From Verrucomicrobiota bacterium (GTDB lineage: Bacteria; Verrucomicrobiota; Verrucomicrobiia; Limisphaerales; SXTU01): a DNA stretch of 64,000 bases. Where the stretch lies: NCBI GenBank assembly GCA_039796295.1, contig JBDKJY010000037.1, positions 2,199 to 66,198 of the forward strand, given 5' to 3'. Position 1 is the stretch's first letter; every line of letters starts with the position of its first letter. Below the pieces are notes generated by a model. That model ran no database searches, was not told where the DNA came from, and saw only the letters and a list, made by a program, of their open reading frames with translations. A program made the position numbers and the translations under genes. Shown here in pieces: positions 10,294 to 36,255 of the stretch.

Positions 10294-11814
10294 TCAGGGC
10301 TGGTTCACCCGTTGGGCCACGAAGGATTGGCCGAGCTGGCCGTAGCGGCTCACGGCGGTGACGGCGATGACTTCGGGCAACGGCCCCGCCGCGCTGCGGA
10401 AGCTGCGGTTCAGCTGGCTGCTGGGGAGGAGTTCGGTCTGCCATGCGTTGGTCCCGCGCATCTGCACGAGCCACCAGCCGGGCGCGCTGCCATCGGGCAT
10501 CACCCACTGGAAGACGGAGACGCTCTTCGCCGCGTCCTGGCCGAAGGCAACTTGGGGGCGCGTGGGAATGGCTTTGTCCAGCCACGGGGAGGCGGGGATG
10601 AGCGCGGGGGTAAGGTTGATTTGGCGGAGGAGTTTGTTGGCGAGGTCGTCGCGGTTTTGGTGCAGGGCCTTGATGCTCCATTGCAGGCTGCCGCTCGCGC
10701 CGGGTTGCGCGCGGGTGAGCTGGAGTTGTTTGATGATTTCGTCCGCACTGCGACCGGGGCCGATGTTGGCGGAGGCGAGGCCGGGCCAGAGGTGGCGCGC
10801 AGCGGAGTTTTGCTCGGCCCACCATTTCAGGAGCACGGGGAAACTCTGCTCCGGCGCGTCAATCGCCCAGTAGAGCTGCGGCGCGAGGTAGTCCATCCAG
10901 CCGGCGCGGAACCACTTGAGGGCGTCGGCGTAAAGCTCCTGCGTGGCGTCCATGCCGCGGATGCCGGGGGGCGTGCCGGGCTTCCAGATGCCGAAGGGGC
11001 TGAGGCCGACTTTCACCCACGGCTTCTCGGCCTTCACGGTGGTGTAGAGGCGCTGGACGAAGCGGTTCACGTTGTCGCGCCGCCAGTCGTCGCGCGCGAG
11101 CGGGCCGCCGGCCTGCTGGTATTTCTTCCAACTGGCGGTGTCCGGGAAATCCATCGGCTTCTTCGCCGCGTCCTTCTCGCGGTAGGGATAGAAGTAGTCG
11201 TCGAGGTGGACGCCATCCACGTCGTAGCGGCGCACGACATCGAGGATGACCCGGAGCGAATGCTCGTGGACGAGCGGCTCGCCGGGGTCGAGCCAGAGCA
11301 GCTTGCCGTAAGCGCGGACCAGCTCGGGCCGGGTCTTGCTGATGTGATTGTGGGCGACGGGGCCCTTCGCCGAGTTGTGCCGGGCGCGGAAGGGATTGAA
11401 CCACGCGTGCAGCTCCAGCCCGCGCCGGTGTGCCTCGGCGACGGCGAAGGCCAGTGGGTCGTAATACGGCTCGGGCGCGCGGCCCATGCTGCCGGTGAGG
11501 TATTCACTCCACGGTTCGAGCTTCGAGGCGTAGAGGGCGTCGCAGCCGGGGCGGACTTGGAGGACGACGGCGTTGAGGTGGAGGGCGCGGGCCTTGTCGA
11601 GCAAGGCGAGGAGCTCGGTCTGCTGCTGCTGCGTGGTCAGGCCGGCCTTCGAGGGCCAGTCGATGTTCCCGACGGAGGCGATCCACGCGCCGCGAAACTC
11701 GCGCGGCAGTGCCGGGGGTGTGAGCGCCGAGGGGATGTAGCTCACGCCCGCGCCGCGAGCGGGGACCGCCACGGTGGCGGCAGCCAAGGCGAGCAAGGTC
11801 TGGCGGCGGTTCAC
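10294..11814 (-). CDS. glycoside hydrolase-like family 10 (GHL10/YngK-like) protein
   Basis: ORF 10294..11910 (TTG). The likely start is GTG 11814, giving a VNRRQTLLALAAA Tat-like signal. FRGAWIASVGNIDWPS and HAWFNPF motifs are typical of PF02638-type proteins. Confidence 0.75.
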   Translation of the reverse strand: MNRRQTLLALAAATVAVPARGAGVSYIPSALTPPALPREFRGAWIASVGNIDWPSKAGLTTQQQQTELLALLDKARALHLNAVVLQVRPGCDALYASKLEPWSEYLTGSMGRAPEPYYDPLAFAVAEAHRRGLELHAWFNPFRARHNSAKGPVAHNHISKTRPELVRAYGKLLWLDPGEPLVHEHSLRVILDVVRRYDVDGVHLDDYFYPYREKDAAKKPMDFPDTASWKKYQQAGGPLARDDWRRDNVNRFVQRLYTTVKAEKPWVKVGLSPFGIWKPGTPPGIRGMDATQELYADALKWFRAGWMDYLAPQLYWAIDAPEQSFPVLLKWWAEQNSAARHLWPGLASANIGPGRSADEIIKQLQLTRAQPGASGSLQWSIKALHQNRDDLANKLLRQINLTPALIPASPWLDKAIPTRPQVAFGQDAAKSVSVFQWVMPDGSAPGWWLVQMRGTNAWQTELLPSSQLNRSFRSAAGPLPEVIAVTAVSRYGQLGQSFVAQRVNQP

Positions 11815-12173
11815 AGCGCGGAGGCTAGCGGGCGGAGCGGAGGGAACCAAGCTGTAACGTGGCGCGCGGGTGTGTCGCCGACCAGCCGCAGCCTTCCCGC
11901 CCTCCCGCAATCATCGCTCAACGCAGACTAGCCAGAGGTGAGCACCTGCTGCGACTGGTGCCGCGCGCACAGTCGGCCTCGGTTCCGTTTGCTGTTCGGG
12001 GGCAAGGCTGGCGCTGCGGCCACGGAACCGTGCGTGGCAGGAAACGCTTTGCTTCGGCCACCTCGTTATACAGAATCCGCCACCCGATGAACGACGCCTC
12101 TCCCACCCTCGCTGCCACGCTAGGCGGGGGGGGCTGAACCGCAGCGGCTTCCTCTTTGCCCACCGCCCCACCC

Positions 12174-13214
12174 ATGAGCCACGTCAGCGACTACTTCCAA
12201 ACCCTCGGCCAGACAATGGCCAGCCAGCTCGGCGACCACCCCGAGCCGGACAGTGTCTTCGCGGCCATCGCCACCGATGTGTTAAGCGCGGTGCCTGCGC
12301 CCCCGATTGACGTTCTGGCGATGGCGGACTGGGCCGGGCAACAAGATCCGCTCCCCAAGCAGGTCAACTTCAAGTCTGGCTTCGGTCAGCCGCCGCTGGT
12401 GGTCTTCGTGGCCCCCGGCTTCTACATCGAGGTGCTCTTCTGGTTCCCCAGCCGCACCGGCATCCACGGGCACGGGTTCACGGGCGCGTTCCGGGTGCTG
12501 AACGGTTGCTCGGTCCAGGTCGAATACCGGTTCCTCGAGGAGTCCGCCCCGGAGGAGGGACTGCGGCTCGGTAAGCTGGTCGCGCAGGGGATCGAGATGG
12601 TCGCGCCGGGCAAGGTGTGTTCCATCCTGGGCCGGGATGACTTCATCCACTGCGTCGCGCATCTGGGCAACCCCTCCCTCACGCTGGTGGCCCGCACCTA
12701 CGGCAGCAAGGACCTGCGGCAATTCTCCTTCCATCGGTGCGGCTTTGCCCTCCGGGCGAAATACCAGCAGCAGACCATGGAACGGCAGGCGGCGGTGCTG
12801 GCGGCGGTGTTCAAGGCCCGCCCGGCGGCCTTCAGAGAACGGCTCCTGGCCTATCTCGCCGCCACCGACTGCGCCGCCTGCTATGCCGTCCTGAGTGAAC
12901 TCAAGTCCCTCCTCGCCTTTCCCGTGTTCACCAAGCAGGTGCTGCCCGCCGTCCGGGAGCGCTTCGGGGCCACCCACGCGCCCGCACTGGCGGCCCTCGA
13001 CGAGGACGTTCGCTCCAACGGCATCTGGGGCCTGATCGGTAAGCTCAACGATCCCCGGCAGCAGCTCCAGCACGCCCTCACCGAGCTATTCCCCGACGAG
13101 CGGGAACGCGATGCCCTCATCTGCCAATCCCTCGGCGTGGCGGATGCCCAGCCGGTGTTAGCGGAATGGTTGCGGATCGCCGAACAGTCCTCTGCTCCGC
13201 CGGCCACTGGTTGA
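12174..13214 (+). CDS. hypothetical protein, cupin-like N-terminal half
   Basis: ORF 12156..13214 (TTG); ATG at 12174. GIHGHGFTGAFRVLNGCSVQVEY resembles a metal-binding double-stranded beta-helix motif. The C-terminal half is helical. Convergent with the cyclase gene. Confidence 0.6.
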   Translation: MSHVSDYFQTLGQTMASQLGDHPEPDSVFAAIATDVLSAVPAPPIDVLAMADWAGQQDPLPKQVNFKSGFGQPPLVVFVAPGFYIEVLFWFPSRTGIHGHGFTGAFRVLNGCSVQVEYRFLEESAPEEGLRLGKLVAQGIEMVAPGKVCSILGRDDFIHCVAHLGNPSLTLVARTYGSKDLRQFSFHRCGFALRAKYQQQTMERQAAVLAAVFKARPAAFRERLLAYLAATDCAACYAVLSELKSLLAFPVFTKQVLPAVRERFGATHAPALAALDEDVRSNGIWGLIGKLNDPRQQLQHALTELFPDERERDALICQSLGVADAQPVLAEWLRIAEQSSAPPATG

Positions 13215-13243: not shown

Positions 13244-15181
13244 CTAGCCTTCCACAGCCTGCTTCCCCGCGCGCCCCTGCTCCTGCTGCCAGAGCGTCAA
13301 CGCGGCCAGTGCGTGGCGCACGGTGAGGGTGGGCGGGTGCTTCAGGGCTTCGCGCAGACGGACCGTGTCCACCCACGGGTTGGGCTGGCACAGGCGCTCA
13401 TGCACCGCCGCCAAGGGCTTCGCCTCCTGCCGCTCCTTCTGCCGCTCCGCCAGCGCCGGGTCCTGCTTCACCGAATCCCACGGGACGGCTGGGGGGAAGA
13501 GCTTGCTCGTCGCATGCCGATACAGCACCCGACCCTGACCCGGCTGGTAATGCAGCTCCGGCGGCACGCCATACACGAACTCCAGCACCCGCCGGTCGGT
13601 CAGCGGGTAGGCATACGTCAGCCCGTGTTCCGCTCCGAAGGCCGCCCACGACTCCATCCGCGCCGTGACATGGCCGTGGTAATAGAGCGCCGCCTGGCAT
13701 CTCCGGCTCCCCGGCACCTCCCGCACGTGCGGCACGTCCGTGCGCAGGTGCGGGCGGATGCGCTCGGCGAACTCCACTCGGATAAACGGCTCGCCCCGCT
13801 TACTGCGCGCCTGCCGATACGCCAGCCGCTCCCACAGCGCGGCCGGCAACGTGGGCAGCACCGCACTATCCCAGAACGCCCGCAGCGCCACCAACGCCAG
13901 CCCCGGGCGACGCCACGCGCGCCCCAGCCCCAGATACCCCGCCAGCGCCCCCCACTCTCCGCGCACCAGATAATCCGCCGCCAACCCCCGCCCATTGTAG
14001 CTCACCCCTTCATCCCCGCCCCAACCCGACAGCATCAGCCCGACCCCTTGCGCCGCCGCGCGCACTTGCACCGACCGCTCCAGCCCCATCGTCAGCGCCG
14101 GCCGCAGGGAGATGTCCAGCTCCGCCATCCAGCGCTCATCGTCATCGGTGGCCTCCGTGTAGAGCGGCGTCAACCCCTCCTGCTGGCAGATGGCCACAAT
14201 GCGCCGGTGCTCCGTCTCCTCTGGCTTGGACCCCGGCGGTGGGGACCAGGAGAACATCGTGGGCACCGCCGCCCCGCGCTGCCGCTGGAGCCGCGCCGCC
14301 AGCACCGCCACCGACGATGAATCCAGCCCCCCGCTGAGGTGAGCCCCCACCGGCAGCCGCGTCCGCAAGCAATCCCCTACCGCCCGCTCCACCAGCGCGT
14401 AAAGCTGCTCCACATAGTCGGCGTGCCGCGCCAGCCGCACATCCGGCAGCCGCTCGGGGAACCAATACCGCGCCACCCGCAACCCCCGGTCATCCACCGT
14501 CAGCGTGTGGCCGAATGGCAGCTTGCGCACGCCCCGGTAGTAGGTGCGGACATTGTCATGCGCCCCCGGAGACAGGTTCAACAGCAGCCACCCCACCTCC
14601 ACCTCATCCAGCTCCCGCCGCACCCCGGGGATGGCGAGCAAGGCCGGCAAGTCCGTGGCGAAGGCGAACTCCCGCTCCGTGTGCCAGTAGAACAGTGGGC
14701 GTGCTCCGATGTGATCCCGCGCGAGGAACAGCCGCCGCGCCCCCGCATCCCAGACGGCGAAGGCGTAATCCCCCACCAGATGCTCCGTGCAGCCCTCCCC
14801 CCACCGCTCCCACGCCCGCAGCAACAGCGCCTCATCCGACACCATCGCGCGTTCCGCCGACGGCACGTCCAGCGCGGCGCACAGCTCCGGCCGTCCATCC
14901 AGCCGCGCATCCGCCACGACGGTCAAGGGTCCACGGGTGAGGATGGCAGTTTCCGGTAGGGCCGCGCTGTGCGCGGTCTTGTCTTCCTCCGGCCGTCCAC
15001 AGGACGGCCCTACCGCCTCCGGCGTGAAGTGCTGCACCTGGCAGCCGAGGGCGATGGGACCGCTGCTCCACAGGCCACGCGCATCCCGGCCATACTGCTC
15101 CATCAGGGACAGGGCAGGGGAGAGGGCCGCTGGGGAGACCGGCGCACCGTCCAGCCGGAACAGCCCGGCAATGGCACTCAT
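13244..15181 (-). CDS. asparagine synthetase-like lasso peptide cyclase (C protein) candidate
   Basis: 645-aa ORF. ATP-PPase motif HLSGGLDSS is present, but the N-terminus MSAIAG lacks the Cys2 glutaminase nucleophile. Compare the true AsnB at 33962..35878, which starts MCAITG. The start overlaps the PqqD stop (ATGA, 15178-15181). Confidence 0.8.
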   Translation of the reverse strand: MSAIAGLFRLDGAPVSPAALSPALSLMEQYGRDARGLWSSGPIALGCQVQHFTPEAVGPSCGRPEEDKTAHSAALPETAILTRGPLTVVADARLDGRPELCAALDVPSAERAMVSDEALLLRAWERWGEGCTEHLVGDYAFAVWDAGARRLFLARDHIGARPLFYWHTEREFAFATDLPALLAIPGVRRELDEVEVGWLLLNLSPGAHDNVRTYYRGVRKLPFGHTLTVDDRGLRVARYWFPERLPDVRLARHADYVEQLYALVERAVGDCLRTRLPVGAHLSGGLDSSSVAVLAARLQRQRGAAVPTMFSWSPPPGSKPEETEHRRIVAICQQEGLTPLYTEATDDDERWMAELDISLRPALTMGLERSVQVRAAAQGVGLMLSGWGGDEGVSYNGRGLAADYLVRGEWGALAGYLGLGRAWRRPGLALVALRAFWDSAVLPTLPAALWERLAYRQARSKRGEPFIRVEFAERIRPHLRTDVPHVREVPGSRRCQAALYYHGHVTARMESWAAFGAEHGLTYAYPLTDRRVLEFVYGVPPELHYQPGQGRVLYRHATSKLFPPAVPWDSVKQDPALAERQKERQEAKPLAAVHERLCQPNPWVDTVRLREALKHPPTLTVRHALAALTLWQQEQGRAGKQAVEG

Positions 15182-15465
15182 GCCGTCACCGTCTGGATGT
15201 GCAGCAGCTTGTCCGTGTGAAGCTGGGTGAGGAAGGCCAGCACCTCCCGCTCACACACCGCCGGGTCCACCTCGAACTCCGACTGGAGCTGGGTGACCAG
15301 CTCGCTCACCCGACACGGCTGTTCCACCGCCGCCCACACCCGAGTGGCCATGCGGTTCATCTGGTAGTATTCCCCATTCTCGATGCTCAGGAGCACGGCC
15401 TGCTCATCCAGCGTGCCGGAGATCAGCTCAGGGGCACGGACCACGGTGGAGGTAGAGAATATCAT
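15178..15465 (-). CDS. PqqD family RiPP recognition element (lasso B1/E-type chaperone)
   Basis: ORF 15178..15600; start moved to ATG 15465, giving 95 aa. Typical PqqD pattern: GTLDEQAVLLSIENGEYYQMNRMATRVWAAVEQPCRVSELVTQL. Translationally coupled to the cyclase. Confidence 0.85.
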   Translation of the reverse strand: MIFSTSTVVRAPELISGTLDEQAVLLSIENGEYYQMNRMATRVWAAVEQPCRVSELVTQLQSEFEVDPAVCEREVLAFLTQLHTDKLLHIQTVTA

Positions 15466-15553
15466 AGCGGCATGCAAAGTAAGGGGCAGCAGGTGAGGGT
15501 CAAGTCGGAACCCGGCCACACAGGCGACGGAGCGCGGGCGGTGGGTAGGGCTT

Positions 15554-15640
15554 GGAGTCCCGGCTTCAGCCGGTGGAGCCGTCCGGTTCACCTGTGCCAC
15601 GCGTGCGCGCTGCCGGCTAAAGCCGGGACTCCAAACGGGG
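15554..15640. repeat. 87-nt structured element, copy 1 (20-bp inverted arms GGAGTCCCGGCTTCAGCCGG / CCGGCTAAAGCCGGGACTCC)
   Basis: Near-identical copy at 17684..17770. The arms are complementary apart from one mismatch. Lies between the precursor A1 stop and the PqqD start. Confidence 0.8.
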
Positions 15641-15698
15641 GGCGGGCTGCGGACGCGGGGACCGCAGTCCGGGGGGGCGAACGCGGGCTGCGGTAGTG

Positions 15699-15854
15699 CT
15701 AGGAAGGGGGGGCCGCAGTGCTACGAGAGGTCTCCCTAGTAAAGGAATTTTTTTCCGTCCCCTCGGCAAGGTCGAGGGGCAGTAGCAGCGGCGTCTCCCA
15801 AGGGAGCTTGGCGGCGGGGGCTGGCGGGGCGGGGGATGCTGATTCGGTTTGCAT
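15699..15854 (-). CDS. lasso-type precursor peptide paralog A1 (51 aa, below the ORF-track cutoff)
   Basis: Hand translation of the minus strand: MQTESASPAPPAPAAKLPWETPLLLPLDLAEGTEKNSFTRETSRSTAAPPS, stop TAG. The leader is shared with three paralogs. Lies immediately upstream of the PqqD and cyclase genes. Confidence 0.7.
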   Translation of the reverse strand: MQTESASPAPPAPAAKLPWETPLLLPLDLAEGTEKNSFTRETSRSTAAPPS

Positions 15855-15863
15855 GGCGGCGGG

Positions 15864-15894
15864 AGAGTAGTGGGGGGGGGCGGAGGGCTGTCAA
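15864..15894 (-). promoter_or_regulatory. sigma70-like promoter candidate for A1 (TTGACA-19 nt-TACTCT, 9 nt to ATG)
   Basis: Minus strand has TTGACA (15894..15889) and TACTCT (15869..15864). The spacer contains a G9/C9 run. The module is conserved upstream of all four precursor ORFs. Confidence 0.45.
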
Positions 15895-16102
15895 CGGGAG
15901 AGGGTGGCCCAAGCGCACCGGAGCGCGGGTAGGGCGCGGTGTCCTCCCCGCGCCGCCGAATGGGGAGTGGCATCCGGTTGGCCCACGGCAAGGGGAGGCC
16001 ACCCCGCCCTACCTGCTCCCGGCTGCGGCCAGGCGCAGCTCAGTATTTTGCACGGCCAGGTGGGGATGGTGAATTCGTTGCTCACAAAACGTCGCGCGTC
16101 TT

Positions 16103-16245
16103 CACCCTCACCCCGGCCCTCTCCCTCCAAGGGAGAGGGAGAGCGCTTTACGCCGGCTCGTGCTTCCGAGCACGCCCTTTCGCCGCAGCGCGGCCTGCGT
16201 GGCTCCCTCTCCCAGCGGGAGAGGGCTGGGGTGAGGGAGAACGGC
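16103..16245. repeat. inverted pair of 'GEGRGEG-type' elements (CTCACCCCGGCCCTCTCCC..GGGAGAGGG)
   Basis: 16103-16145 and 16204-16245 are reverse complements of each other and flank about 60 bp. The same family occurs at 19261-19390, 28207-28333, 37623-37668, 46321-46362, 49150-49190 and 49296-49338. Confidence 0.8.
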
Positions 16246-16380
16246 TCCGAGTGCAGAACCGGGTTGCAGGAAAGTAATATGCGCCCCTGCGGCCCATCCC
16301 TTCATTAAGGCGTTGACAAACCAACCCCGTTTCGATAGAGAAAAACCGTCCACACAATCTGAACCGAACCAATCCAAGCT

Positions 16381-17073
16381 ATGCCCTTCAAATACATCCA
16401 AGTTCCGAACACCAAAGACCCGAACAAATCCTCCACCCGCGCCGCCCTGGGCGACCCCGTAAGCGAAGCCGAGTTCTTCGCCTACATGGCCATCCTCCTC
16501 AGCAAACCGCCTGCCGATTGCGAAGCGGCCTTCAATGCGTTGCTGGATACCTGTGTCCACTTCGCCCGGGATACCCGCGCCACCAGCTACCTGCATGGCC
16601 GCCTGCGTATGCAACCCTCCAGCGGCGGCAGCTTCGAGACCGGCACCACCCCGCACTCCCCCAAGGACATCGGCGCGCGTATGAACCTCAGCCTCGGACC
16701 TGATACCGTCGCCGCCTTCGAGGACGACCTGAGCATCGAGAAGGTGGGCGAGGAAGGGGTGCGCGCCCCGCAGATTGACCGCGTGATAGACAACCGCACC
16801 GGGGACACCGATAAATACACGGCCTCCGATGTGCTGGAGGTGGACGGGGAGCACTTCGAGATCGACCCGACGGACACCGCGCAAGGGGTCTTCCTCACCC
16901 CGGTGGCGAGCGGTTCGGCTGTGCGCATCACCCGTTACCTGAGCGTCACGCCTACCCGCATCGAAGTGCTGCTGCCGGCCGGCCTCACCGGCCAGCAACG
17001 CCTCATGGTGGTGTGCAAGTATGACACCAGCCCCCTGCGCTCCAGCACTTACACCAGCGCCCTCAGCCCGTAG
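16381..17073 (+). CDS. HU-like DNA-binding N-terminal domain plus DUF4469-like Ig-fold C-terminal domain protein
   Basis: 230-aa ORF. The C-terminal pattern IDRVIDNRTGDTDKYTASDVLEVDGEHFEIDPTDTAQGVFL...RIEVLLPAGLTGQQRLMVV resembles Bacteroidetes HU/DUF4469 proteins. On the opposite strand to the surrounding RiPP genes. Confidence 0.5.
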   Translation: MPFKYIQVPNTKDPNKSSTRAALGDPVSEAEFFAYMAILLSKPPADCEAAFNALLDTCVHFARDTRATSYLHGRLRMQPSSGGSFETGTTPHSPKDIGARMNLSLGPDTVAAFEDDLSIEKVGEEGVRAPQIDRVIDNRTGDTDKYTASDVLEVDGEHFEIDPTDTAQGVFLTPVASGSAVRITRYLSVTPTRIEVLLPAGLTGQQRLMVVCKYDTSPLRSSTYTSALSP

Positions 17074-17259
17074 GGTCACCCTCCGCCGGTCTGACCCCCA
17101 CCCTCCGCACCACCGAGGGTCACCCTCGCGACGCCGTAGGGTCACCCTCCGACGAGCTGAGGGTCACCCTCCATGAGTCTGAGGGTCACCCTCGTTACGA
17201 CTGAGGGTCACCCTCGTGACGGCTGAGGGTCACCCTCCGCGCGGCTGAGGATGACCCTT
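17071..17259. repeat. tandem array: 9 units at an exact 22-bp period of the 13-bp palindrome GAGGGTCACCCTC
   Basis: Units start at 17071, 17093, 17115, 17137, 17159, 17181, 17203, 17225 and 17247. Five are perfect GAGGGTCACCCTC, two are TAGGGTCACCCTC, and two are degenerate. Spacers are variable 7-mers followed by CT. Confidence 0.95.
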
Positions 17260-17423
17260 GGGGCAGCGCAGGGCTACGTTTGGAATGCACGTGGGGTGCG
17301 GGGCCATCGCCGCACCGCCTTGGTCTGGTGGAATTCAAGTGGCAGACGGCGGGGTGAGGACACCCGCGCTACTGGGAGGTCATTAGGCGAAGGGCCTAGC
17401 CGCCGGTAGGGCAGCGCTTGCGT

Positions 17424-17582
17424 CTATGAGGCCGGGCCTGAGCTTCTGGTAAGTTGTTCAACGGCAGTGATTACAGTCTTCTGGGTCTCATCGGCGAGGT
17501 CGAGGGGGAGGAGGAGCGGGGTCTCCCAGGGGAGCTTGGCGGCGGGGGCTTGCGGGGCGGGGGAGGCAGGTGCGGTCTGCAT
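17424..17582 (-). CDS. lasso-type precursor peptide paralog A2 (52 aa)
   Basis: Hand translation: MQTAPASPAPQAPAAKLPWETPLLLPLDLADETQKTVITAVEQLTRSSGPAS, stop TAG. Confidence 0.7.
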   Translation of the reverse strand: MQTAPASPAPQAPAAKLPWETPLLLPLDLADETQKTVITAVEQLTRSSGPAS

Positions 17583-17591
17583 GGCGGCGGG

Positions 17592-17619
17592 AGGGTAGCT
17601 GGGGTTGGCGAGCTGTCAA
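17592..17619 (-). promoter_or_regulatory. sigma70-like promoter candidate for A2 (TTGACA-16 nt-TACCCT, 9 nt to ATG)
   Basis: Minus strand has TTGACA (17619..17614) and TACCCT (17597..17592). Same module as the other three copies, but with no poly-G run in the spacer. Confidence 0.45.
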
Positions 17620-17683
17620 CGGAGGAGGCAGGCCCAAGCGGTGCGGAGCGCAGACGCCTCCATCCGCAGGCGGGTTGTGGCTG

Positions 17684-17770
17684 GGAGTCCCGGCTTCAGC
17701 CGGTGGAGCCGTCCGATTCACCTATGCCACTCGTGCGCGCTACCGGCTAAAGCCGGGACTCCAAACGGGG
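17684..17770. repeat. 87-nt structured element, copy 2
   Basis: More than 90 percent identical by eye to 15554..15640. Lies between the precursor A3 stop and the A2 promoter module. Confidence 0.8.
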
Positions 17771-17938
17771 CGACGGCGGGTTGCGTTCTCCCTCACCGCC
17801 TACCGACTCAGATGCTGGGGGACTGCGTCCCGCAGGGGCTCCGATGGGGGGAGTCGTAACCTAGGCAAGTCCGACCGTTGCTACGGGTCGCAGACCGGCG
17901 CTGCAAGCGCAGCGTTCAGTGCACCGGCGGCGGGCGGC

Positions 17939-18097
17939 CTACGAGACGGGGCCAAAGGCGGTTCCGATTTCGGTGCTTTGAGGGACGGGCCCGGAATTTG
18001 TCCCGGCGGGGACATCCAGGGGTGTGCAGAGCGGGGTCTCCCACGGGAGCTTGGCGGCGGGGGCTGTCGGGGCGGGGGAGGCAGGTGCGGTTTGCAT
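17939..18097 (-). CDS. lasso-type precursor peptide paralog A3 (52 aa)
   Basis: Hand translation: MQTAPASPAPTAPAAKLPWETPLCTPLDVPAGTNSGPVPQSTEIGTAFGPVS, stop TAG. Confidence 0.7.
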   Translation of the reverse strand: MQTAPASPAPTAPAAKLPWETPLCTPLDVPAGTNSGPVPQSTEIGTAFGPVS

Positions 18098-18106
18098 GGC
18101 GGCGGG

Positions 18107-18134
18107 AGAGTAGCTGGGGGGGGCGGGCTGTCAA
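18107..18134 (-). promoter_or_regulatory. sigma70-like promoter candidate for A3 (TTGACA-16 nt-TACTCT, 9 nt to ATG)
   Basis: TTGACA (18134..18129) overlaps the oxygenase stop codon (18131-18133). The spacer holds a G8/C8 run. Confidence 0.45.
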
Positions 18135-18787
18135 TTGATCGGAGCGCGGGCGTGGGGAGGGCGCTGCGGCTTGACCTTGTCCGCCTTGAGGTGGGCATAG
18201 GGGCCGTCCGCCCGGACGTAGTGCAGGAAGGTCTGGATCATCTCGGTGCCGGTGAAGGGCTCACGCCAATGGGGGCGCTCGATGCCCTGGTAGACCAAAC
18301 CATCCCCCGCCGCGAGGTGGGCGGGCACGGCTTCCCCGGTAGGCGTCTCCACATACAAAGGCCAAGGCACCTGCGGATCGGGCTGGAGGGCGAGGGAGAG
18401 GCTGATTTCGCAGGCGGGGCGGTCCGTGTGCCGGGCCAGCACGGCCCCCGGCTCGTAGATGCGCATGAAGGAGTAGGTAGGCAGGAGCCGGTGGCCGGTG
18501 AGCTGCTCAACCTGCGGGAGCAACCGTAGGAGGAGGTCCTCCGTGACGAGGTTCTTGTAGGCGACGGTGGCCGCTGTCACCGCTCCTTCGCCCCGGCGCA
18601 GGAGGTTGTGGGCCTTCATGGTCTTCAAGTCGGCGGCGGCCTTGGCGCAGACGGCGGCGGGCAGCAAGCCACGGGCGATGAGATAGCCGTGGGTGGCGAA
18701 GGCGTGGGCGGTGTCCACCGGAGCGGGAGGGGATGAAGGGGGACTGCTGGTGGGGGTCTGAGGTGCGCGGGGGGGTGGCGGTGGCAT
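18131..18787 (-). CDS. Fe(II)/2-oxoglutarate-dependent oxygenase
   Basis: ORF 18131..19195; start moved to ATG 18787 (MPPPPPRAPQ..), because the upstream part reads through precursor A4 and repeats. The HxD...H triad is visible: ARHTDRP and ERPHWREP. Confidence 0.75.
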   Translation of the reverse strand: MPPPPPRAPQTPTSSPPSSPPAPVDTAHAFATHGYLIARGLLPAAVCAKAAADLKTMKAHNLLRRGEGAVTAATVAYKNLVTEDLLLRLLPQVEQLTGHRLLPTYSFMRIYEPGAVLARHTDRPACEISLSLALQPDPQVPWPLYVETPTGEAVPAHLAAGDGLVYQGIERPHWREPFTGTEMIQTFLHYVRADGPYAHLKADKVKPQRPPHARAPIN

Positions 18788-18891
18788 CGGGCTCACGATG
18801 CAGCGGACTTTCCGCGTGGGAAGGACTAGCGTCAACCGGGAATCCGGACCCCAGACCCGCAGGCTGAAGGGGCGGACACGACCTGCTTGGA

Positions 18892-19047
18892 CTACGAGGC
18901 GGGGCCGGAGCGGGGACCGGATTCCCTGTAGAAGGTAAATGTTTTGTTTGTCTCTTCGGCGGCATCGAGGGTCTGGCAGACGGGCGTCTCCCAAGGGAGC
19001 TTGGCGGCAGGGGCTGGCGGGGCAGGGGAGGCAGGTGCGGTTTGCAT
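18892..19047 (-). CDS. lasso-type precursor peptide paralog A4 (51 aa)
   Basis: Hand translation: MQTAPASPAPPAPAAKLPWETPVCQTLDAAEETNKTFTFYRESGPRSGPAS, stop TAG. Confidence 0.7.
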   Translation of the reverse strand: MQTAPASPAPPAPAAKLPWETPVCQTLDAAEETNKTFTFYRESGPRSGPAS

Positions 19048-19056
19048 GACGGCGGG

Positions 19057-19084
19057 AGAGTAGCTGGGGGGGGCGGGCTGTCAA
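19057..19084 (-). promoter_or_regulatory. sigma70-like promoter candidate for A4 (TTGACA-16 nt-TACTCT, 9 nt to ATG)
   Basis: TTGACA (19084..19079) and TACTCT (19062..19057). G8/C8 run in the spacer. Confidence 0.45.
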
Positions 19085-19260: not shown

Positions 19261-19390
19261 GGATTCTCTCCCAGCGGGAGAGGGACAGGGTGAGGGAGAA
19301 CGGCTAGGAGTCGTAGCGGGGAGGGATGTCTCCAGACCTCGCTGCCATTCTCCCTCACCCCAGCCCTCTCCCGCTGGGAGAGGGAGGCAG
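19261..19390. repeat. MITE-like unit bounded by an inverted pair of GEGRGEG-type elements
   Basis: 19264-19305 and 19346-19385 are reverse complements of each other (about 40-bp terminal inverted repeats). Confidence 0.75.
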
Positions 19391-19442
19391 GCAGGCCGCT
19401 TCAGTGTTAGCGAGGCGCTGGGGACACCTGGCCTTGCGTAGC

Positions 19443-20305
19443 TCAGTGCACCGGTTGGCCGGTGGCATCCAGGTAGCCATACTGGCGCATGACGTCGGCG
19501 TGGTCGGCGATGACGCGGGCGGCTTGCTCGGGGGTGAGGGCGTCGCGCCAGGAGCCGATGCTGCCCCGGCGGAAGAAGGCCTTGGCCTTGGGGAGGCGCT
19601 CCCGGAAGCCGCCGGCTTGCTCCTGCCGCTGGAGTTCCTCAAAGCGGCTGAACTCGATGGCCTTGCGGATGCGCTCGGGGTCGTCGGGCAGGCCGAGGAA
19701 GCGCACGGCGGTGGTGAAGGTGGCTTCGGGGGTGAGCTTCATGTCCTCGTAGCGGATGACTTGCACGCGGAGGCCGGGGGCGGTGGCCCAACTGGTGACG
19801 TGGCGGCTCCAGGAGAGGAGGCGCTGGCGGAGCTGGTTCGGCTCGGTGGCATCGCTGACGGCCACGCAGGCGTCGGGCTTGCCCAGCAGCTTGACGGAGC
19901 GCTCGTAGTCGGTGCTGCCGCCATGAGCGGCGTAGGAGACGGCGACGTCCAGGGGGTTACGGATAAAGTAGAGGGCGGCCTCGGTGGCCTCGGGGGGCAG
20001 GAGGGGGCGGCCGTCGGGCAGGAAGGTGTAGGCGTCGTGGCACTTGCAGTAGAGGGTCTCCTTGGCCTGGCGGGCGAGGTGGAGATAGACCTCGGGGCGG
20101 AGGGCGTCGGCCTCGTCGGGGGTCAGCTCGCCGGAGTCGTAGCCGACGGCGTTGTCGAAGGGGGCGCGGGCGCTGGAGATGGGGCCGCCGTCGAGGGCAT
20201 TGATGTCGGCGGGCTGGGGGCATCCCGGAGGAAGTTGGTGAGGAAGGTGCGGAACCAAGTGTTACCGGACTTGGGGTAGGAGGCGAGCCAGACGATGCGC
20301 TTCAT
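19443..20305 (-). pseudogene. sulfotransferase, split by a 1-nt frameshift (pseudogene or homopolymer sequencing error)
   Basis: The PAPS 5'-PSB motif MKRIVWLASYPKSGNTWFRTF (ATG 20305) is in one frame. The rest, including the 3'-PB-like IRNPLDVAVSY, is ORF 19443..20258 in another frame. Reading the G5 run at 20216-20220 as G6 gives a continuous ..FLRDAPQPADINALDGGPI.. Confidence 0.8.
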
Positions 20306-20318
20306 GGCGGGCGATGGC

Positions 20319-21256
20319 TCAGGGGCGGAAGTCGGCTTCGAGGCGGTCCACCAGCTCGGTGAGGCGGAAGGCGCCCTCGGGCCGGGTGACGCGGGTGACG
20401 GTGGCCTGCTGGGCGAGGGCCAGGGCGGCGCGGAAGTGGGCGGGCTTGGCGGCGAGGCCATCCACGAAGTGGAAGCGGTAGGTCTGCTGCTTGAGGGCGT
20501 TGAGGCGCTGGGGGCCTTCGACGGAGGTGAGCTGGAGGTCGGGGTCGTTAGTGGCGCGGAGGAGGTAGAGCTTGCGCACCGGGAGGGGGACGGTGGCGAA
20601 GGCGGTGCCCAGGGGGACGGCGCGCTTCTCCAGCGCGGGCCGGATGCGCTGGAGGCCATCGGGTGCGAGGTCGAATTGCTTGAGGGAGTCCAGCCAGAGC
20701 TTGGCATGGGGGAGGCCGGGGTGGAGGACGAGGCGGCCGGTGGCATCCGGGCGGATGGCACAGACGTCGTCGGTGAGGACGGGGTAGCCGCGGCGCTGGC
20801 AGGCGATGGCGGTGGTGGACTTGCCGACACCGGAGATGCCGAGGAAGGCAACGCAGGTATCACCCGTGGCGATGGCGCTGCCGTGGAGGACGAGGTCACC
20901 GCGTTGGTGGAGGAGGGCGGCGAAGGCGGAGCCGTAGAGGAAGAGGCGGACGTCCTCGGGGTCCGCACCGGGCGGGGACTCGATGACGATGCGCCGGCCG
21001 TCCGCGATGAGGAAGCGGGCGATGCCGTCCACGATGAGGAGGAGCTGGCCGGGGGCGGCTTGATAGCGGACGCCACGGTCGGTGGCTCCGGGGAGTTCGG
21101 TGGGGACAGGGCCGGTGAGGATCTCGACGTCGGCGGGGCCATCGGTGGAGGCGGGGGAAGCTCGGGGAGGGGCAGGGTGGAGTGGATGCGCAGGCCGTAG
21201 GCTTGGTGCTGGGGCGGTGGGGGCGGTGGGTTGTCTGTAGTTTCTGGGTCGGCCAT
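20319..21256 (-). pseudogene. HPr kinase-like (HprK-related) peptide kinase, split by a 1-nt frameshift (pseudogene or sequencing error)
   Basis: The N-terminus MADPETTDN..QAYGLRIHSTLPLPELP (ATG 21256) is in one frame. The body, with the P-loop FLGISGVGKSTTA, is in the frame of ORF 20319..21365. Reading the G5 run at 21153-21157 as G6 gives ..LPELPPASTDGPADVEILTG.. Confidence 0.65.
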
Positions 21257-21359
21257 GCGGAGCTACCGTTAGCATGAGGCGGAGGGTGATGTCGAGGGAG
21301 GGGGAGGGCGGGTGAGGATTGGCTGGCCTTGGCGAGGGTGGATTCCCCATGCTGAGGGG

Positions 21360-22487
21360 ATGCAATGGCTTGTGCCGGAACCGGAGTGGCTGGGGGCGTT
21401 ACCCACGGATGTGGCGGCGCATGTGCGGCAACTGGCGGCGTTACCGGGCTTCCCCCGGCACTTGGCCCGGTATAGCGCCGTGCTCAAGAAGCTGAACGAG
21501 AAGCACACTGGCTCGGCCAAGGTGCTGGCCGAGCAGGCGTGGCGGCTGGGGGGCCAGGACCCGGTGGTCCGCCAACACGCGCACTGGGCGATCAGCAAGC
21601 GGGTGCCGGGCTGGCACTTCGGGATCATCAACGACGACGCGCGGAATGCCATCTACCAGGCGGCGCTGAACCGGCATGTGCGTCCGGGGATGATCGTCTT
21701 CGAGGTGGGGACGGGGACGGGCATTCTCGCCATGCTGGCGGCGCGCGCCGGCGCGGCGCATGTCTATACGTGCGAGATGGAGCCGTTGCTGGTGGAGGTG
21801 GCGCGGGAGAACATCGCGCGGAACGGGCTGACGGAGCGGGTGACGGTGATTCCCAAGCGGTCGGACAAGGTGGAGTTGGGCGTGGACCTGCCGGAGCGGG
21901 CGGACCTCTTCGTGGCGGAGATCGTGGATAATGGCCTGCTGGGCGAGGAGGCGCTGGGCATCACGGCGGACGTGCAGGCGCGGCTGCTCAAGCCTGGGGC
22001 GGTGTTGGTGCCCGATCAGATCGAACTGCGCGGGACGCTGGTGGGCGGGCCGTTGGCGAGCCGGGCGTTCCGGGCGCGGCCGGCGTGTGGGCTGGATGTC
22101 TCGGCGCTGGACCGGCTGGGGTCGGGGGTGGTGCAAAGTCCGGCGGGGCTGGAGACGGACCTGGCGGAGGACGTGGTGGCGCTGCACTTCGATCTTGCGC
22201 AGGCGGGAAGTTACCGGACGGCGCAGACGAGCGTGGCGGTGCAGGGGCTAAGGGACGGTGAGGCGGAGGGTTTCCTGAGCTGGATCTGGCTGCGCTTCGG
22301 CGAGGGGCTGGAATACACGAACCGTCCGCCGACGGTCAGTTGCTGGGGTCCGCGCATTCACGTGTTCCCCACGCCCATGCCAGTGACGGCCGGCCACCTG
22401 GTGACGATGCAAGTGCAGCACGACTGCAAGCGGGTGAACATCTGGTCGGAGGCCGGTGGGGCCGGGGTAGGGGAACCGGCAGCGTAA
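21360..22487 (+). CDS. class I SAM-dependent methyltransferase, protein arginine N-methyltransferase (PRMT)-like
   Basis: ORF 21312..22487; ATG 21360. HFGIINDDARNAIYQAALNRHVRPGMIVFEVGTGTGILAMLAARAGAAHVYTCE matches the PRMT pre-motif I and motif I layout. ADLFVAEIVDNGLLGEEAL resembles the PRMT double-E loop region. Confidence 0.65.
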   Translation: MQWLVPEPEWLGALPTDVAAHVRQLAALPGFPRHLARYSAVLKKLNEKHTGSAKVLAEQAWRLGGQDPVVRQHAHWAISKRVPGWHFGIINDDARNAIYQAALNRHVRPGMIVFEVGTGTGILAMLAARAGAAHVYTCEMEPLLVEVARENIARNGLTERVTVIPKRSDKVELGVDLPERADLFVAEIVDNGLLGEEALGITADVQARLLKPGAVLVPDQIELRGTLVGGPLASRAFRARPACGLDVSALDRLGSGVVQSPAGLETDLAEDVVALHFDLAQAGSYRTAQTSVAVQGLRDGEAEGFLSWIWLRFGEGLEYTNRPPTVSCWGPRIHVFPTPMPVTAGHLVTMQVQHDCKRVNIWSEAGGAGVGEPAA

Positions 22488-33041: not shown

Positions 33042-34226
33042 ATGGCGGATTGCTCGGCTGCGCAGACCGTGGTCACCAACCTCGATTTCGAACTCTCGCA
33101 AGCGCGCGAAAGAGATGCTCGCGCAGTTCACCGAACAGTCAATGACATCGCTGGTCTCACAAGGGACCGAGCCGAGGCCGATCTACAAGCGGCATGCCTG
33201 CGAGAGTTGATCGCAACCGGACAGATCCACAACAGACACAAGGGCATCGACACAACCCAAGAAAGCACCCAAGCAACGACCAAGTTGATCAGCTTGGGGG
33301 CAACACTCACACGCTACACCATCGAGGCGGTTTCAGCAGAATTGGCGTTCATTGACTTGCGCTCGTTGCTTCTGTCCGCTTCGTTTTTTTATCGACATGA
33401 ACTAAGCCACAGCGACCAACCCGCCGACCCAGCACTCAACGAGGCGATTTTCGCAGGATTAGTTTGGCTGGCGGCGGCGGCGGCAGGCGCAGGTTACTAC
33501 GATCCGGCGATCTCCATCGCAATCTCGGCGAGGAGGTTCGCGGAGCTAAGTGGCATTTCGCGCTCGCACTTCAGCAGACGAACATACGGCCAAAGTCTGC
33601 TGGCGGAAGCACAAGCACATCTCGGAAAGCGTAACTACCTCGCGGCCTCAGAAAAGGCAAAGCATTGCCTTCGGTGGACCCACCAGTGCGAAATGGAGTG
33701 GGGGGAGACCAACGAAAACAGGAAATTAGTTTGCGTGCGAGTCATCGCCATGTCCTACCGGAGCGTTTCAAGCCTGGGGTTGCCGGCCGCCGGCCCGGAG
33801 TATTTTTGGGAATGGGGAAATGCGGAGTCCTGGGCGCTCGCGCGCGTGGCGTCGTTGGCATCCGGCATGGCGAGAGGTTGGCAAGCTTCGTGGGGAGAGA
33901 CAACCCTAGCCTGGATTCCTTCACCCCTTCAGGGTGCGCCTCGCTCAACGCCCCTGCACGGTCAGGCGCGCAAGCTTTCCCGCCCCGTCATTGAGCGCTC
34001 GACGAAGATGCGGTGCCAGAGTTCCAGCCAAAGGAGGGACCAGAGGCGGTGGGTGTGTTGGGCCGCGCCGCTGGTGTGCTCGGTGATGAGGCGCTGGATT
34101 TCGGTCTTCTTGAACCAGCCGGCTTTGACGAGGTTGCCGTCGGGGAGGAGGCGGTTCAGGACGGGGGCGAGGTCGGTGCGGAGCCAGTGTTTCAGCGGGA
34201 GACTAAAACCCTTCTTCGGGCGGTAG
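33042..34226 (+). CDS. hypothetical protein in a lower-GC insert (3' end uncertain or possibly disrupted)
   Basis: ORF 32901..34226; ATG 33042. Protein-like composition across about 300 aa in a visibly AT-richer segment. The last ~265 nt run antisense through the asnB 3' end, so the true terminus is doubtful. Confidence 0.35.
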   Translation: MADCSAAQTVVTNLDFELSQARERDARAVHRTVNDIAGLTRDRAEADLQAACLRELIATGQIHNRHKGIDTTQESTQATTKLISLGATLTRYTIEAVSAELAFIDLRSLLLSASFFYRHELSHSDQPADPALNEAIFAGLVWLAAAAAGAGYYDPAISIAISARRFAELSGISRSHFSRRTYGQSLLAEAQAHLGKRNYLAASEKAKHCLRWTHQCEMEWGETNENRKLVCVRVIAMSYRSVSSLGLPAAGPEYFWEWGNAESWALARVASLASGMARGWQASWGETTLAWIPSPLQGAPRSTPLHGQARKLSRPVIERSTKMRCQSSSQRRDQRRWVCWAAPLVCSVMRRWISVFLNQPALTRLPSGRRRFRTGARSVRSQCFSGRLKPFFGR

Positions 34227-35943: not shown

Positions 35944-36255
35944 TCAGGGGAAACTTTTCCGCCGCCGGGCCAGCTCTGCCTCCGAGTCCCGTGCGCCGTG
36001 AAGCACGCCCAGCACGACGACGGTCGGCCCTTCCACGAAGTAGAACGTGCCGTAGGGAAACCGCCGCAAGTTCAACCGCCGGATGTCAGCGAACCGGACG
36101 CGATAGACCATCGGCTCGTGCGCGAGCCGGCGGAGCACGGTGGCAGATTCCTCCAGCAAGCGGTCCCCGAGTTCCAGGGCCTGCCCCTCATACCAGGCGA
36201 AGGCCTCCAGCAGGTCAGCCCGGACGAGCGGATGAAACGCGAGCGCGAACTTCAC
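35944..36255 (-). CDS. type II toxin, RelE/ParE family
   Basis: 103 aa. The C-terminal pattern FYFVEGPTVVVLGVLHGARD is typical of ParE/RelE plasmid-stabilisation toxins. Immediately downstream of a small antitoxin-like ORF. Confidence 0.75.
   Translation of the reverse strand: MKFALAFHPLVRADLLEAFAWYEGQALELGDRLLEESATVLRRLAHEPMVYRVRFADIRRLNLRRFPYGTFYFVEGPTVVVLGVLHGARDSEAELARRRKSFP

Follow-up and report, generated by a model that had tools for sequence, protein, structure and literature searches.

Four unannotated paralogous genes in a Verrucomicrobiota genome as predicted precursors of kinase-tailored lasso peptides

Results

Four overlooked ORFs among predicted peptide-modifying enzymes

The window analysed here is a 64,000-nucleotide stretch of a Verrucomicrobiota metagenome-assembled genome (MAG; contig JBDKJY010000037.1 of GCA_039796295.1), and our subject is a set of four short minus-strand open reading frames (ORFs), A1 to A4, which we propose to be lasso-peptide precursor genes. 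Read 5' to 3' along the minus strand, the locus runs kinase, sulfotransferase, A4, a 195-aa oxygenase, A3, A2, a DUF4469 gene on the opposite strand, A1, PqqD and cyclase. A1 (15699-15854, 51 aa) is placed directly upstream of the genes for the PqqD protein (B1) and the cyclase (C), followed at a distance by A2 (17424-17582, 52 aa), A3 (17939-18097, 52 aa) and A4 (18892-19047, 51 aa). All four had been proposed from the DNA letters alone (the original prediction), and our recomputed translations at these coordinates are identical to the proposed peptides letter for letter.

The NCBI annotation bears out that the ORFs are unannotated. By exact-sequence look-up, the cyclase, PqqD, DUF4469 and oxygenase proteins of the window are MEN9575818.1 to MEN9575821.1, with locus tags RL514_3673 to RL514_3676 (B1 being an exact match to MEN9575819.1). 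These tags run consecutively with no gap, despite A1 lying between RL514_3674 and RL514_3675, A2 and A3 between RL514_3675 and RL514_3676, and A4 beyond RL514_3676; A1-A4 were therefore not called as genes. Their exact peptide sequences were not found in a collection of 15 billion proteins, and Pfam and NCBIfam scans of the precursors matched no family.

Seven residues had been described as invariant among the four peptides (W19, E20, T21, P22, L27, D28 and T33), and they stay so when two homologues are added; M1, P10, K16, L17, P18, P50 and S52 are invariant across the same six sequences. The further claim that the C-terminal halves are essentially unrelated did not survive, as each copy retains one Glu at core position 7-9 and the four window copies finish in [GA]-P-x-S.

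The frame is translated-like, the core diverges

Aligned as nucleotides, the four loci are similar from ~40 nt before the ATG through the first ~100 nt of the ORF, lose similarity at the leader/core junction and regain it nowhere but in the final few codons, a pattern well beyond chance. Identity among the window paralogues is 77-87% in the upstream 60 nt, 79-86% in the leader, ~50% in the core and 50-65% downstream, the values for core and downstream DNA being roughly those expected of globally aligned, unrelated GC-rich 60-mers. Since some 40 nt of upstream non-coding DNA are conserved too, the copies might be thought non-coding dispersed repeats, similar to repetitive extragenic palindromic (REP) sequences or miniature inverted-repeat transposable elements, or else promoter/operator modules, with ORFs arising by chance in GC-rich DNA. 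The region is indeed rich in repeats (a 99-nt element, the GGGAGAGGG...GGGGTGAGGG REP family and a 22-nt tandem array), and other frames are often open at this GC content.

The reading frame itself speaks strongly against such repeats. Homologous copies with stops in the proposed frame, named in the original prediction as a sign against it, did not turn up: the frame is open in 15 of 15 DNA copies, from at least four genomes, whereas stops interrupt each of the other five (in 5, 12, 7, 8 and 12 of the 15). The start and stop codons are kept as well, and the products (50-57 aa) differ in length by whole codons, gained or lost in the variable part. As first noted, A3 and A4 differ at 7 nucleotides over their first 24 codons, and five of these differences are synonymous third-position changes (codons 8, 13, 18, 21 and 22). 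Leader diversity at codon positions 1, 2 and 3 is 0.175, 0.167 and 0.386, the third about twice the others, and the ratio of nonsynonymous to synonymous change (dN/dS; Nei-Gojobori, over 19 leader codons) ranges from 0.04 to 0.78, with none of the 65 informative pairs reaching 1, in agreement with the translated, selected leader that had been suggested. Neither dN/dS nor codon periodicity could, in our judgement, prove the frame, since an antisense frame in phase with it shares its wobble positions and would give a similar signal. The stop-codon census was used to settle the frame for this reason, the wobble-aligned antisense frame being the one with stops in 8 of the 15 copies. As the peptide rules given below also fit the adjacent enzymes, non-coding repeats are effectively refuted as an explanation, and we consider them extremely improbable.

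Beyond the leader the picture changes. A4 has a positional orthologue, copy b (10455-10607), in L002, part of the sister locus described below. The two are 92% identical over the upstream 60 nt, 85% in the leader, 69% in the core and 90% over the downstream 60 nt. The core is thus less conserved than both non-coding flanks, which points to accelerated or diversifying change specifically in the core.

One set of precursor rules holds across the family

The family assembled here has 21 members, drawn from the window, the sister MAG (seven copies), an Opitutaceae MAG, metagenomes and Azospirillum. Every member has W-x2-P and then a Thr exactly 14 residues after the Trp, which in all four window copies is T33 and would occupy leader position -2. 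Thr at this penultimate position is a rule of lasso precursors (PMC10368454). With the register set by Thr(-2), an acidic residue (Asp/Glu) falls at core position 7, 8 or 9 in 21 of 21 members; with the register moved by -2, -1, +1 or +2, only 5, 12, 17 or 10 have one there. The predicted Thr(-2) cleavage site is the sole register fitting the known lasso ring sizes (PMC10368454). Were acidic residues placed at random, the product of the per-core probabilities of finding one at position 7-9 would be 3e-15, a value that overstates the significance because some cores are related and is still decisive. All members, including the four in the window, end in Ser. In most members, including those of the window and L002, the distance from the ring Glu to the C-terminus is 9-10 residues, and tails across the family usually terminate in [GA]-P-x-S; what had been described as hypervariable halves therefore have a fixed architecture.

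Applied to the window, these rules give four different predicted products (hyphens follow the ring acid). A4, with a predicted leader of residues 1-34, would leave the core KTFTFYRESGPRSGPAS and an 8-residue ring from Lys1 to Glu8 (KTFTFYRE-SGPRSGPAS). The predicted core of A3, SGPVPQSTEIGTAFGPVS, would close a 9-residue ring between Ser1 and Glu9 (SGPVPQSTE-IGTAFGPVS) and that of A2, KTVITAVEQLTRSSGPAS, an 8-residue ring between Lys1 and Glu8 (KTVITAVE-QLTRSSGPAS). A1 would yield the core KNSFTRETSRSTAAPPS, in which Lys1 and Glu7 close a 7-residue ring (KNSFTRE-TSRSTAAPPS); this core resembles those of P0002/L001 and of L002 10001-10156. The predicted core of A3 thus starts with Ser and the other three with Lys; the residues seen at core position 1 family-wide are K, A, S, G, H, E, T and N.

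The leader sequence WETPxL had been likened to the YxxPxL motif of lasso leaders. WETPxL can be read as a W-for-Y version of that motif, and here W-x-x-P-x-[L/C/I/V] occupies -16 to -11, one residue nearer the cleavage site than the published YxxPxL at -17 to -12 (PMC10368454). The Azospirillum kinase-type precursor has the same variant.

The neighbouring enzymes

B1 (RL514_3674, 15178-15465, minus strand, 95 aa) is a PqqD-family recognition element for peptides made by the ribosome and modified after translation (RiPPs), matching PF05402 at E 1.5e-18. The leader had been proposed as a target of a lasso-type RiPP recognition element (RRE), and the best match of B1 is the lasso PqqD chaperone model NF033536 (77.7 bits; cut-off 80). 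The cyclase (RL514_3673, 13244-15181, minus strand, 645 aa) is an asparagine-synthetase homologue with Pfam Asn_synthase and GATase_7 domains, whose best match is the lasso isopeptide cyclase model NF033535 (E 1.3e-94; 318 bits against a curated cut-off of 525).

The kinase gene K (20319-21365, minus strand) encodes an HPr-kinase-like lasso precursor kinase and probably starts downstream of the listed TTG. Its matches to Hpr_kinase_C and HprK_rel_A/B are weak; it has a complete catalytic motif, H161-x14-G-x2-G-x-G-K-S-x15-D-D, and is 33% identical to the kinase of the Azospirillum lasso cluster. Beside it, the sulfotransferase gene (19443-20305, minus strand; PF00685, E 1.3e-18) has a 1-nt deletion near 20219. 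Alignment with the intact genes of L002 and of the Opitutaceae locus places the missing base in a C-run, and the deletion puts the PKSGNTW loop, which binds 3'-phosphoadenosine-5'-phosphosulfate, out of frame with the remainder of the protein. Either the gene is a pseudogene or the frameshift arose during MAG assembly, and the enzyme may be inactive in this genome.

Between A4 and A3 lies RL514_3676 (18131-18718, minus strand, 195 aa), for which we found no Pfam or NCBIfam match and no match in the Protein Data Bank (PDB) by sequence search. An AlphaFold2 model built with a 40-sequence alignment reached a predicted local distance difference test (pLDDT) score of 92, compared with an unusable 39.6 from the single sequence. 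The best Foldseek matches of the former model in the PDB are the Pseudomonas prolyl-4-hydroxylase PPHD (E 4e-11, TM 0.70) and PHD2, which suggests a 2-oxoglutarate (2OG)/Fe(II) oxygenase of prolyl-4-hydroxylase-like fold. The H97-x-D99...H150 triad is invariant, and L002 likewise has the gene among its precursors, 88% identical. Fusion to a PqqD domain in one homologue, P0181, ties this oxygenase family to RRE-guided peptide modification, and we presume the window oxygenase to be a tailoring enzyme. The precursor logic of Thr(-2), Glu(7-9) and C-terminal Ser, the kinase, the position of the oxygenase and the lack of a leader peptidase (B2) gene at the locus all go beyond the original prediction.

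A candidate leader peptidase elsewhere in the genome

Pfam scans of ~40 genes in the 64-kb window found neither a B2 leader peptidase (PF13471) nor an ATP-binding cassette (ABC) exporter. Queries with the B2 proteins of the Opitutaceae and Azospirillum loci (phmmer and hmmsearch --max) against six-frame ORFs of at least 40 aa from the window and L001-L003 likewise found no B2; as a control, the two queries detect each other at E 1e-10 to 1e-12. The Opitutaceae B2 has hundreds of homologues in databases (56-94% identical), and those with named sources are all from Verrucomicrobiota or Opitutaceae. One candidate, P0020 (MEN9573670.1, RL514_1525, PF13471), lies on a separate 168.7-kb contig assigned to the same MAG by its shared locus-tag prefix, an assignment open to MAG binning errors. 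Its context, seen on identical-protein Logan contigs that end just after B2, is kinase-PqqD-B2. The simplest reading is that the peptidase would be supplied in trans. As RL514_1525 stands beside its own kinase and a divergent B1, cross-talk between the two loci is an assumption.

Relatives in other genomes

The family is sparsely represented in databases. A protein search with A2 returned only two homologues, a profile search of 1.84 billion cluster representatives gave nine matches (eight peptides of 50-72 aa and one 12-residue match in a 1027-aa protein), and a metagenome scan with the leader motif found three short contigs only. The sister locus L002/L003 (GCA_964578245.1) has the same synteny, a cyclase 77% identical to that of the window and seven precursor-like ORFs, four of them annotated. 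An Opitutaceae MAG (L004) has a cyclase 55% identical with one precursor downstream of it, and B2, a PF14907 nucleotidyltransferase and an ABC exporter ~6 kb away. On metagenome contigs L015 and L016 the genes are ordered A-B1-C, and the cyclase is 63% identical. In Azospirillum soli (L006) the genes form a classical D-B1-B2-K-C block, and the precursor shares a KPW-x-EP leader signature.

Some further features of these relatives deserve mention. The sister contig CAZOCL010000003.1 (L003) is labelled 'uncultured Klebsiella sp.'; its high GC content and its verrucomicrobial genes and synteny indicate that it is mislabelled. Two or three phage-tail-collar (PF07484) proteins lie beside kinase-type lasso clusters in L004 (12367-14020), L006 (12664-14947) and L012 (16430-18983, in a 6.5-Mb genome), together with a GNAT acetyltransferase gene, which is adjacent in L006 and L012 and ~3 kb away in L004; DUF6916 is annotated in L012. 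This module is not in the window, and the association, seen in three unrelated genomes, appears recurrent.

Expression signals and repeats

A promoter-like element precedes each precursor in the window. For A4 it spans 19048-19084 on the minus strand, with TTGACA (19084-19079), 16 nt, TACTCT (19062-19057) and 9 nt to the ATG. Minus-strand elements of the same geometry lie at 18098-18134 (A3), 17583-17619 (A2, with TACCCT) and ~15855-15894 (A1, with a 19-nt spacer). Conservation of the sequence extends over all four window copies plus copies a and b of L002. Copies f and g of L002 show another sequence in the same TTGAC / TTATyC / ATG geometry, and upstream of four other copies the DNA is unrelated. 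No Shine-Dalgarno sequence was found before the window precursors, which suggests leaderless or nearly leaderless mRNA. A scan for sigma-70 promoters and terminators made no call at these conserved sites, the -10 hexamer being weak, so that the promoter and leaderless claims rest on TTGACA conservation and geometry. On these grounds, independent leaderless transcription of each precursor is our working hypothesis. The TGA stop of the oxygenase gene (18133-18131) falls inside the TTGACA hexamer of A3 (18129-18134).

A 99-nt inverted-repeat element with arms of 22-26 nt (GGAGTCCCGGCTTCAGCCGG ... CCGGCTAAAGCCGGGACTCC) lies between A1 and B1 (15549-15647), where it gives the PqqD ORF a spurious N-terminal extension, and again upstream of A2 (17679-17777). 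Within the window it is confined to the precursor region, and in the sister genome it is repeated in many copies between precursors (L002 9850-10800). As RNA it would form a ~24-bp hairpin, and for the 150-nt segment that contains it (15549-15698) the folding energy is -77.9 kcal/mol (z = -4.1); downstream of A2-A4, no significant RNA hairpin was found (z -0.2 to -1.3). The hairpin could act as an attenuator or stabiliser that sets the ratio of precursor to enzyme, and the element may drive duplication or shuffling of precursor cassettes.

Two other repeats mark the region. A tandem array at 17072-17258 consists of 8.5 copies of a 22-nt unit, each a conserved 12-13-nt palindrome, (G)AGGGTCACCCTC, with a ~10-nt variable spacer. 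It starts at the stop codon of the DUF4469 gene (RL514_3675, 16381-17073, plus strand), whose protein has no match in PHROGs, and the sister locus has no such array; the arrangement resembles a series of sites, spaced by about two helical turns, for a protein that binds DNA as a dimer. The REP-like family GGGAGAGGGCyGGGGTGAGGG has 10 matches in the window against 0 expected (16082-16252, 19266-19399, 28232, 37629, 46339, 49153 and 49313), and inverted REP pairs with 62-nt arms, 92% complementary, flank the segment with A2-A4 and the oxygenase gene. Rfam found nothing on the ORFs and only sub-threshold miRNA-like matches on the REP hairpin 19266-19381, which the REP repeats account for.

Other neighbouring genes

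A gene for a PrmA-like protein methyltransferase (21312-22487, plus strand) diverges from the kinase gene and is syntenic in the window, L001 and L002 (84% identity). Lys occurs within core positions 1-4 in ~14 of the 21 cores (13 on a strict recount). Taken together, these observations allow the speculation that Lys or N-terminal methylation is a further modification. Convergent with the cyclase gene is the gene for a 352-aa protein (12156-13214, plus strand), 80% conserved in the sister locus and without a match in Pfam, NCBIfam, PHROGs or the PDB. A 312-aa gene that directly follows the cyclase in the sister locus (L002 16964-17902) and in L005 is absent from the window. We considered the 352-aa gene and the L002 312-aa gene as a substitute peptidase, and the evidence points neither way. 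A second asparagine synthase in the window (33962-35878, minus strand), next to a ParE toxin gene (35944-36255, minus strand), is a true AsnB-type enzyme (Pfam, 312 bits) and not a lasso cyclase.

Discussion

A proposed kinase-tailored lasso-peptide pathway

We consider it highly probable, from sequence and genomic context, that A1-A4 are four paralogous precursor (A) genes of an HPr-kinase-tailored, split-B lasso-peptide pathway. B1 and the cyclase match lasso models, and genes for a kinase, a sulfotransferase and an oxygenase lie on the same strand. Synteny is kept in relatives, the precursor rules hold in 21 of 21 members, the ORFs carry a coding signal with a hypervariable core, and a B2 gene is present in the same MAG.

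From the ORFs, selective constraint, gene neighbourhood and conserved sequence rules observed here, we infer translation, a threaded topology and every chemical step of the following model. Each gene would have its own short promoter of the TTGACA type and give a probably leaderless mRNA, and the conserved leader (KLPWETPL...LD...T-x) of the peptide would be bound by the adjacent PqqD/RRE protein B1. On the linear, leader-bound peptide, the HPr-kinase homologue would phosphorylate the invariant C-terminal Ser; the prolyl-hydroxylase-like 2OG oxygenase may act at the linear stage too, as may the sulfotransferase if intact. A B2 cysteine protease encoded outside the locus would then cut after Thr(-2)-x(-1), and the cyclase would link the newly freed alpha-amine of residue 1 (Lys or Ser) to the side-chain acid of Glu7 in A1, Glu8 in A2 and A4 or Glu9 in A3. 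The ring would trap a 9-10-residue tail, and the outcome would be four different lasso peptides of 17-18 residues from one enzyme set.

Several observations weigh against this model. B2 and exporter genes are missing from the scanned window, and neither was found in the ~22 kb (L002 and L003) around the sister cluster. The candidate B2 adjoins its own kinase and its own B1, the latter 43% identical to that of the window. Cyclase and B1 both score under the NCBIfam curated cut-offs, and the sulfotransferase gene is frameshifted. The aromatic-x2-P-x-L motif lies one residue closer to the cleavage site than published, and dN/dS by itself does not exclude the wobble-aligned antisense frame, which only its stops do. 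Lasso cores classically begin with a small residue (Gly, Ala, Ser or Cys), a rule with known exceptions that A1, A2 and A4 break, and we know of no characterised lasso peptide with Lys at core position 1.

Some of these points would also suit genuine RRE-dependent precursors with non-lasso products, either linear phosphorylated or hydroxylated peptides or the output of a decaying locus whose cyclase no longer acts. The missing B2 and exporter genes, the broken sulfotransferase gene and the low cyclase score all lean that way. However, Thr(-2) combined with Asp/Glu(7-9) in every member, in a single register, would have no rationale unless the peptides met a lasso cyclase and a protease; purifying selection acts on the leader, the same MAG holds a B2 gene, and the cyclase ORF is intact as well as conserved in the sister MAG. 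We therefore regard non-lasso products as unlikely.

It is also improbable, in our estimation, that A1 alone is functional and that A2-A4 are unprocessed duplicated relics or decoys. The opposite-strand DUF4469 gene and the repeats do cut A2-A4 off from the enzymes, and processing of all four would require one cyclase to close rings of 7, 8 and 9 residues. Yet all four retain the promoter-like element, the leader, Thr(-2), the ring Glu and the C-terminal Ser, the sister genome keeps seven copies, and leader dN/dS between paralogues is low.

Comparison with known systems

The proposed pathway, with kinase-tailored lasso peptides as its products, has clear counterparts. Characterised lasso kinases phosphorylate the Ser that ends the linear precursor, the phospho-acceptor in paeninodin, pseudomycoidin, ThcoA and SyanA (PMC8498205, PMC6993621, PMC9266682). 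The systems for paeninodin (Paenibacillus), pseudomycoidin (Bacillus) and ThcoA/SyanA share with the window the split B1/B2 architecture, an asparagine-synthetase-type cyclase, precursors ending in Ser and an HPr-kinase homologue with a His/P-loop/Asp-Asp motif, and some clusters open with a sulfotransferase gene (PMC8498205, PMC6993621, PMC9266682). The window differs in belonging to Verrucomicrobiota, in having four precursors (seven in the sister locus) instead of one, in a locus that lacks B2, nucleotidyltransferase and exporter genes, in a prolyl-hydroxylase-like oxygenase among the precursors and in a core position 1 that is mostly Lys; beyond the leader motif and the C-terminal Ser, the peptides show no recognisable relationship. 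The Azospirillum soli locus represents proteobacterial lasso clusters of the kinase type. Its cyclase is 32-39%, its kinase 33% and its B1 31% identical to those of the window, and its precursor, MSEAIAVKDADERRERKPWSEPKLTAFDIVDSTGNTGGVQGDDGFGS, has W-x2-P, the 14-residue spacing to Thr, Asp at core positions 8/9 and a C-terminal Ser. Unlike the window, it has a contiguous D, B1, B2, K and C set and just one precursor, whose core is 13 residues long, and it has no oxygenase.

The kinase motif spacing is identical to that of BsfK (H148...D187), which pairs with BsfA in Bradymonas sediminis (PMC10368454). In the Bsf system the RRE assists tailoring ahead of leader removal (PMC10368454), the order of events that we propose here. 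BsfK, however, targets Ser3, and in the Bsf leader Ile occupies -2 and YxxPxL spans -17 to -12, in contrast to Thr(-2), WxxPxL at -16 to -11 and an invariant C-terminal Ser in the present family. In the canucin A pathway, the Fe/2OG hydroxylase CanE acts on the linear precursor with the help of B1 (PMC9266682). A 2OG oxygenase gene within a lasso cluster is common to both cases, and the P0181 fusion suggests RRE-guided action for the window's enzyme family as well; unlike CanE, the window oxygenase has a predicted prolyl-4-hydroxylase-like fold. The catalogue of lasso modifications in PMC9266682 includes neither sulfation nor prolyl hydroxylation. A characterised verrucomicrobial lasso peptide was not found in the literature searched.

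RiPP loci with several precursors are known from the caulosegnins I-III (lasso peptides) and the prochlorosins (lanthipeptides), where a shared leader and one enzyme set serve diverging cores. The present loci differ from these in having four to seven copies, each with a promoter-like element, and in rings of 7, 8 and 9 residues predicted within one locus.

A possible natural lasso library

The class, the mechanism and the kinase tailoring are already known and nothing here is categorically new, so that the findings extend the field rather than change it. Its departures from described systems, as read from the sequences, are the phylum, the four to seven precursors with their own promoter-like elements, the three predicted ring sizes, the mostly Lys1 start, the shifted motif, the B2 and exporter genes outside the locus and the interleaved oxygenase. 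Missed by standard annotation and with few relatives in databases, the precursor family has been overlooked by current genome mining.

More tentatively, the locus may be a natural combinatorial lasso library, in which independently promoted, probably leaderless precursors, with cores that change faster than their non-coding flanks, feed one promiscuous cyclase (rings of 7, 8 and 9 residues, starting at Lys or Ser) and a peptidase acting in trans, and in which the products carry a C-terminal phospho-Ser and prolyl hydroxylation (for example at the Pro of [GA]-P-x-S), with sulfation where the gene is intact, a set of modifications so far undescribed in combination for lasso peptides. We see this full scheme as possible, with the balance tilting somewhat against it. 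If true, lasso chemistry would be extended to an underexplored phylum, to Lys-initiated rings, to a cyclase making three ring sizes and to a leader peptidase working in trans, possibly with hydroxyproline or sulfate modifications. A tolerant cyclase paired with a shared leader would be the type of scaffold that is used for engineering lasso-peptide libraries.

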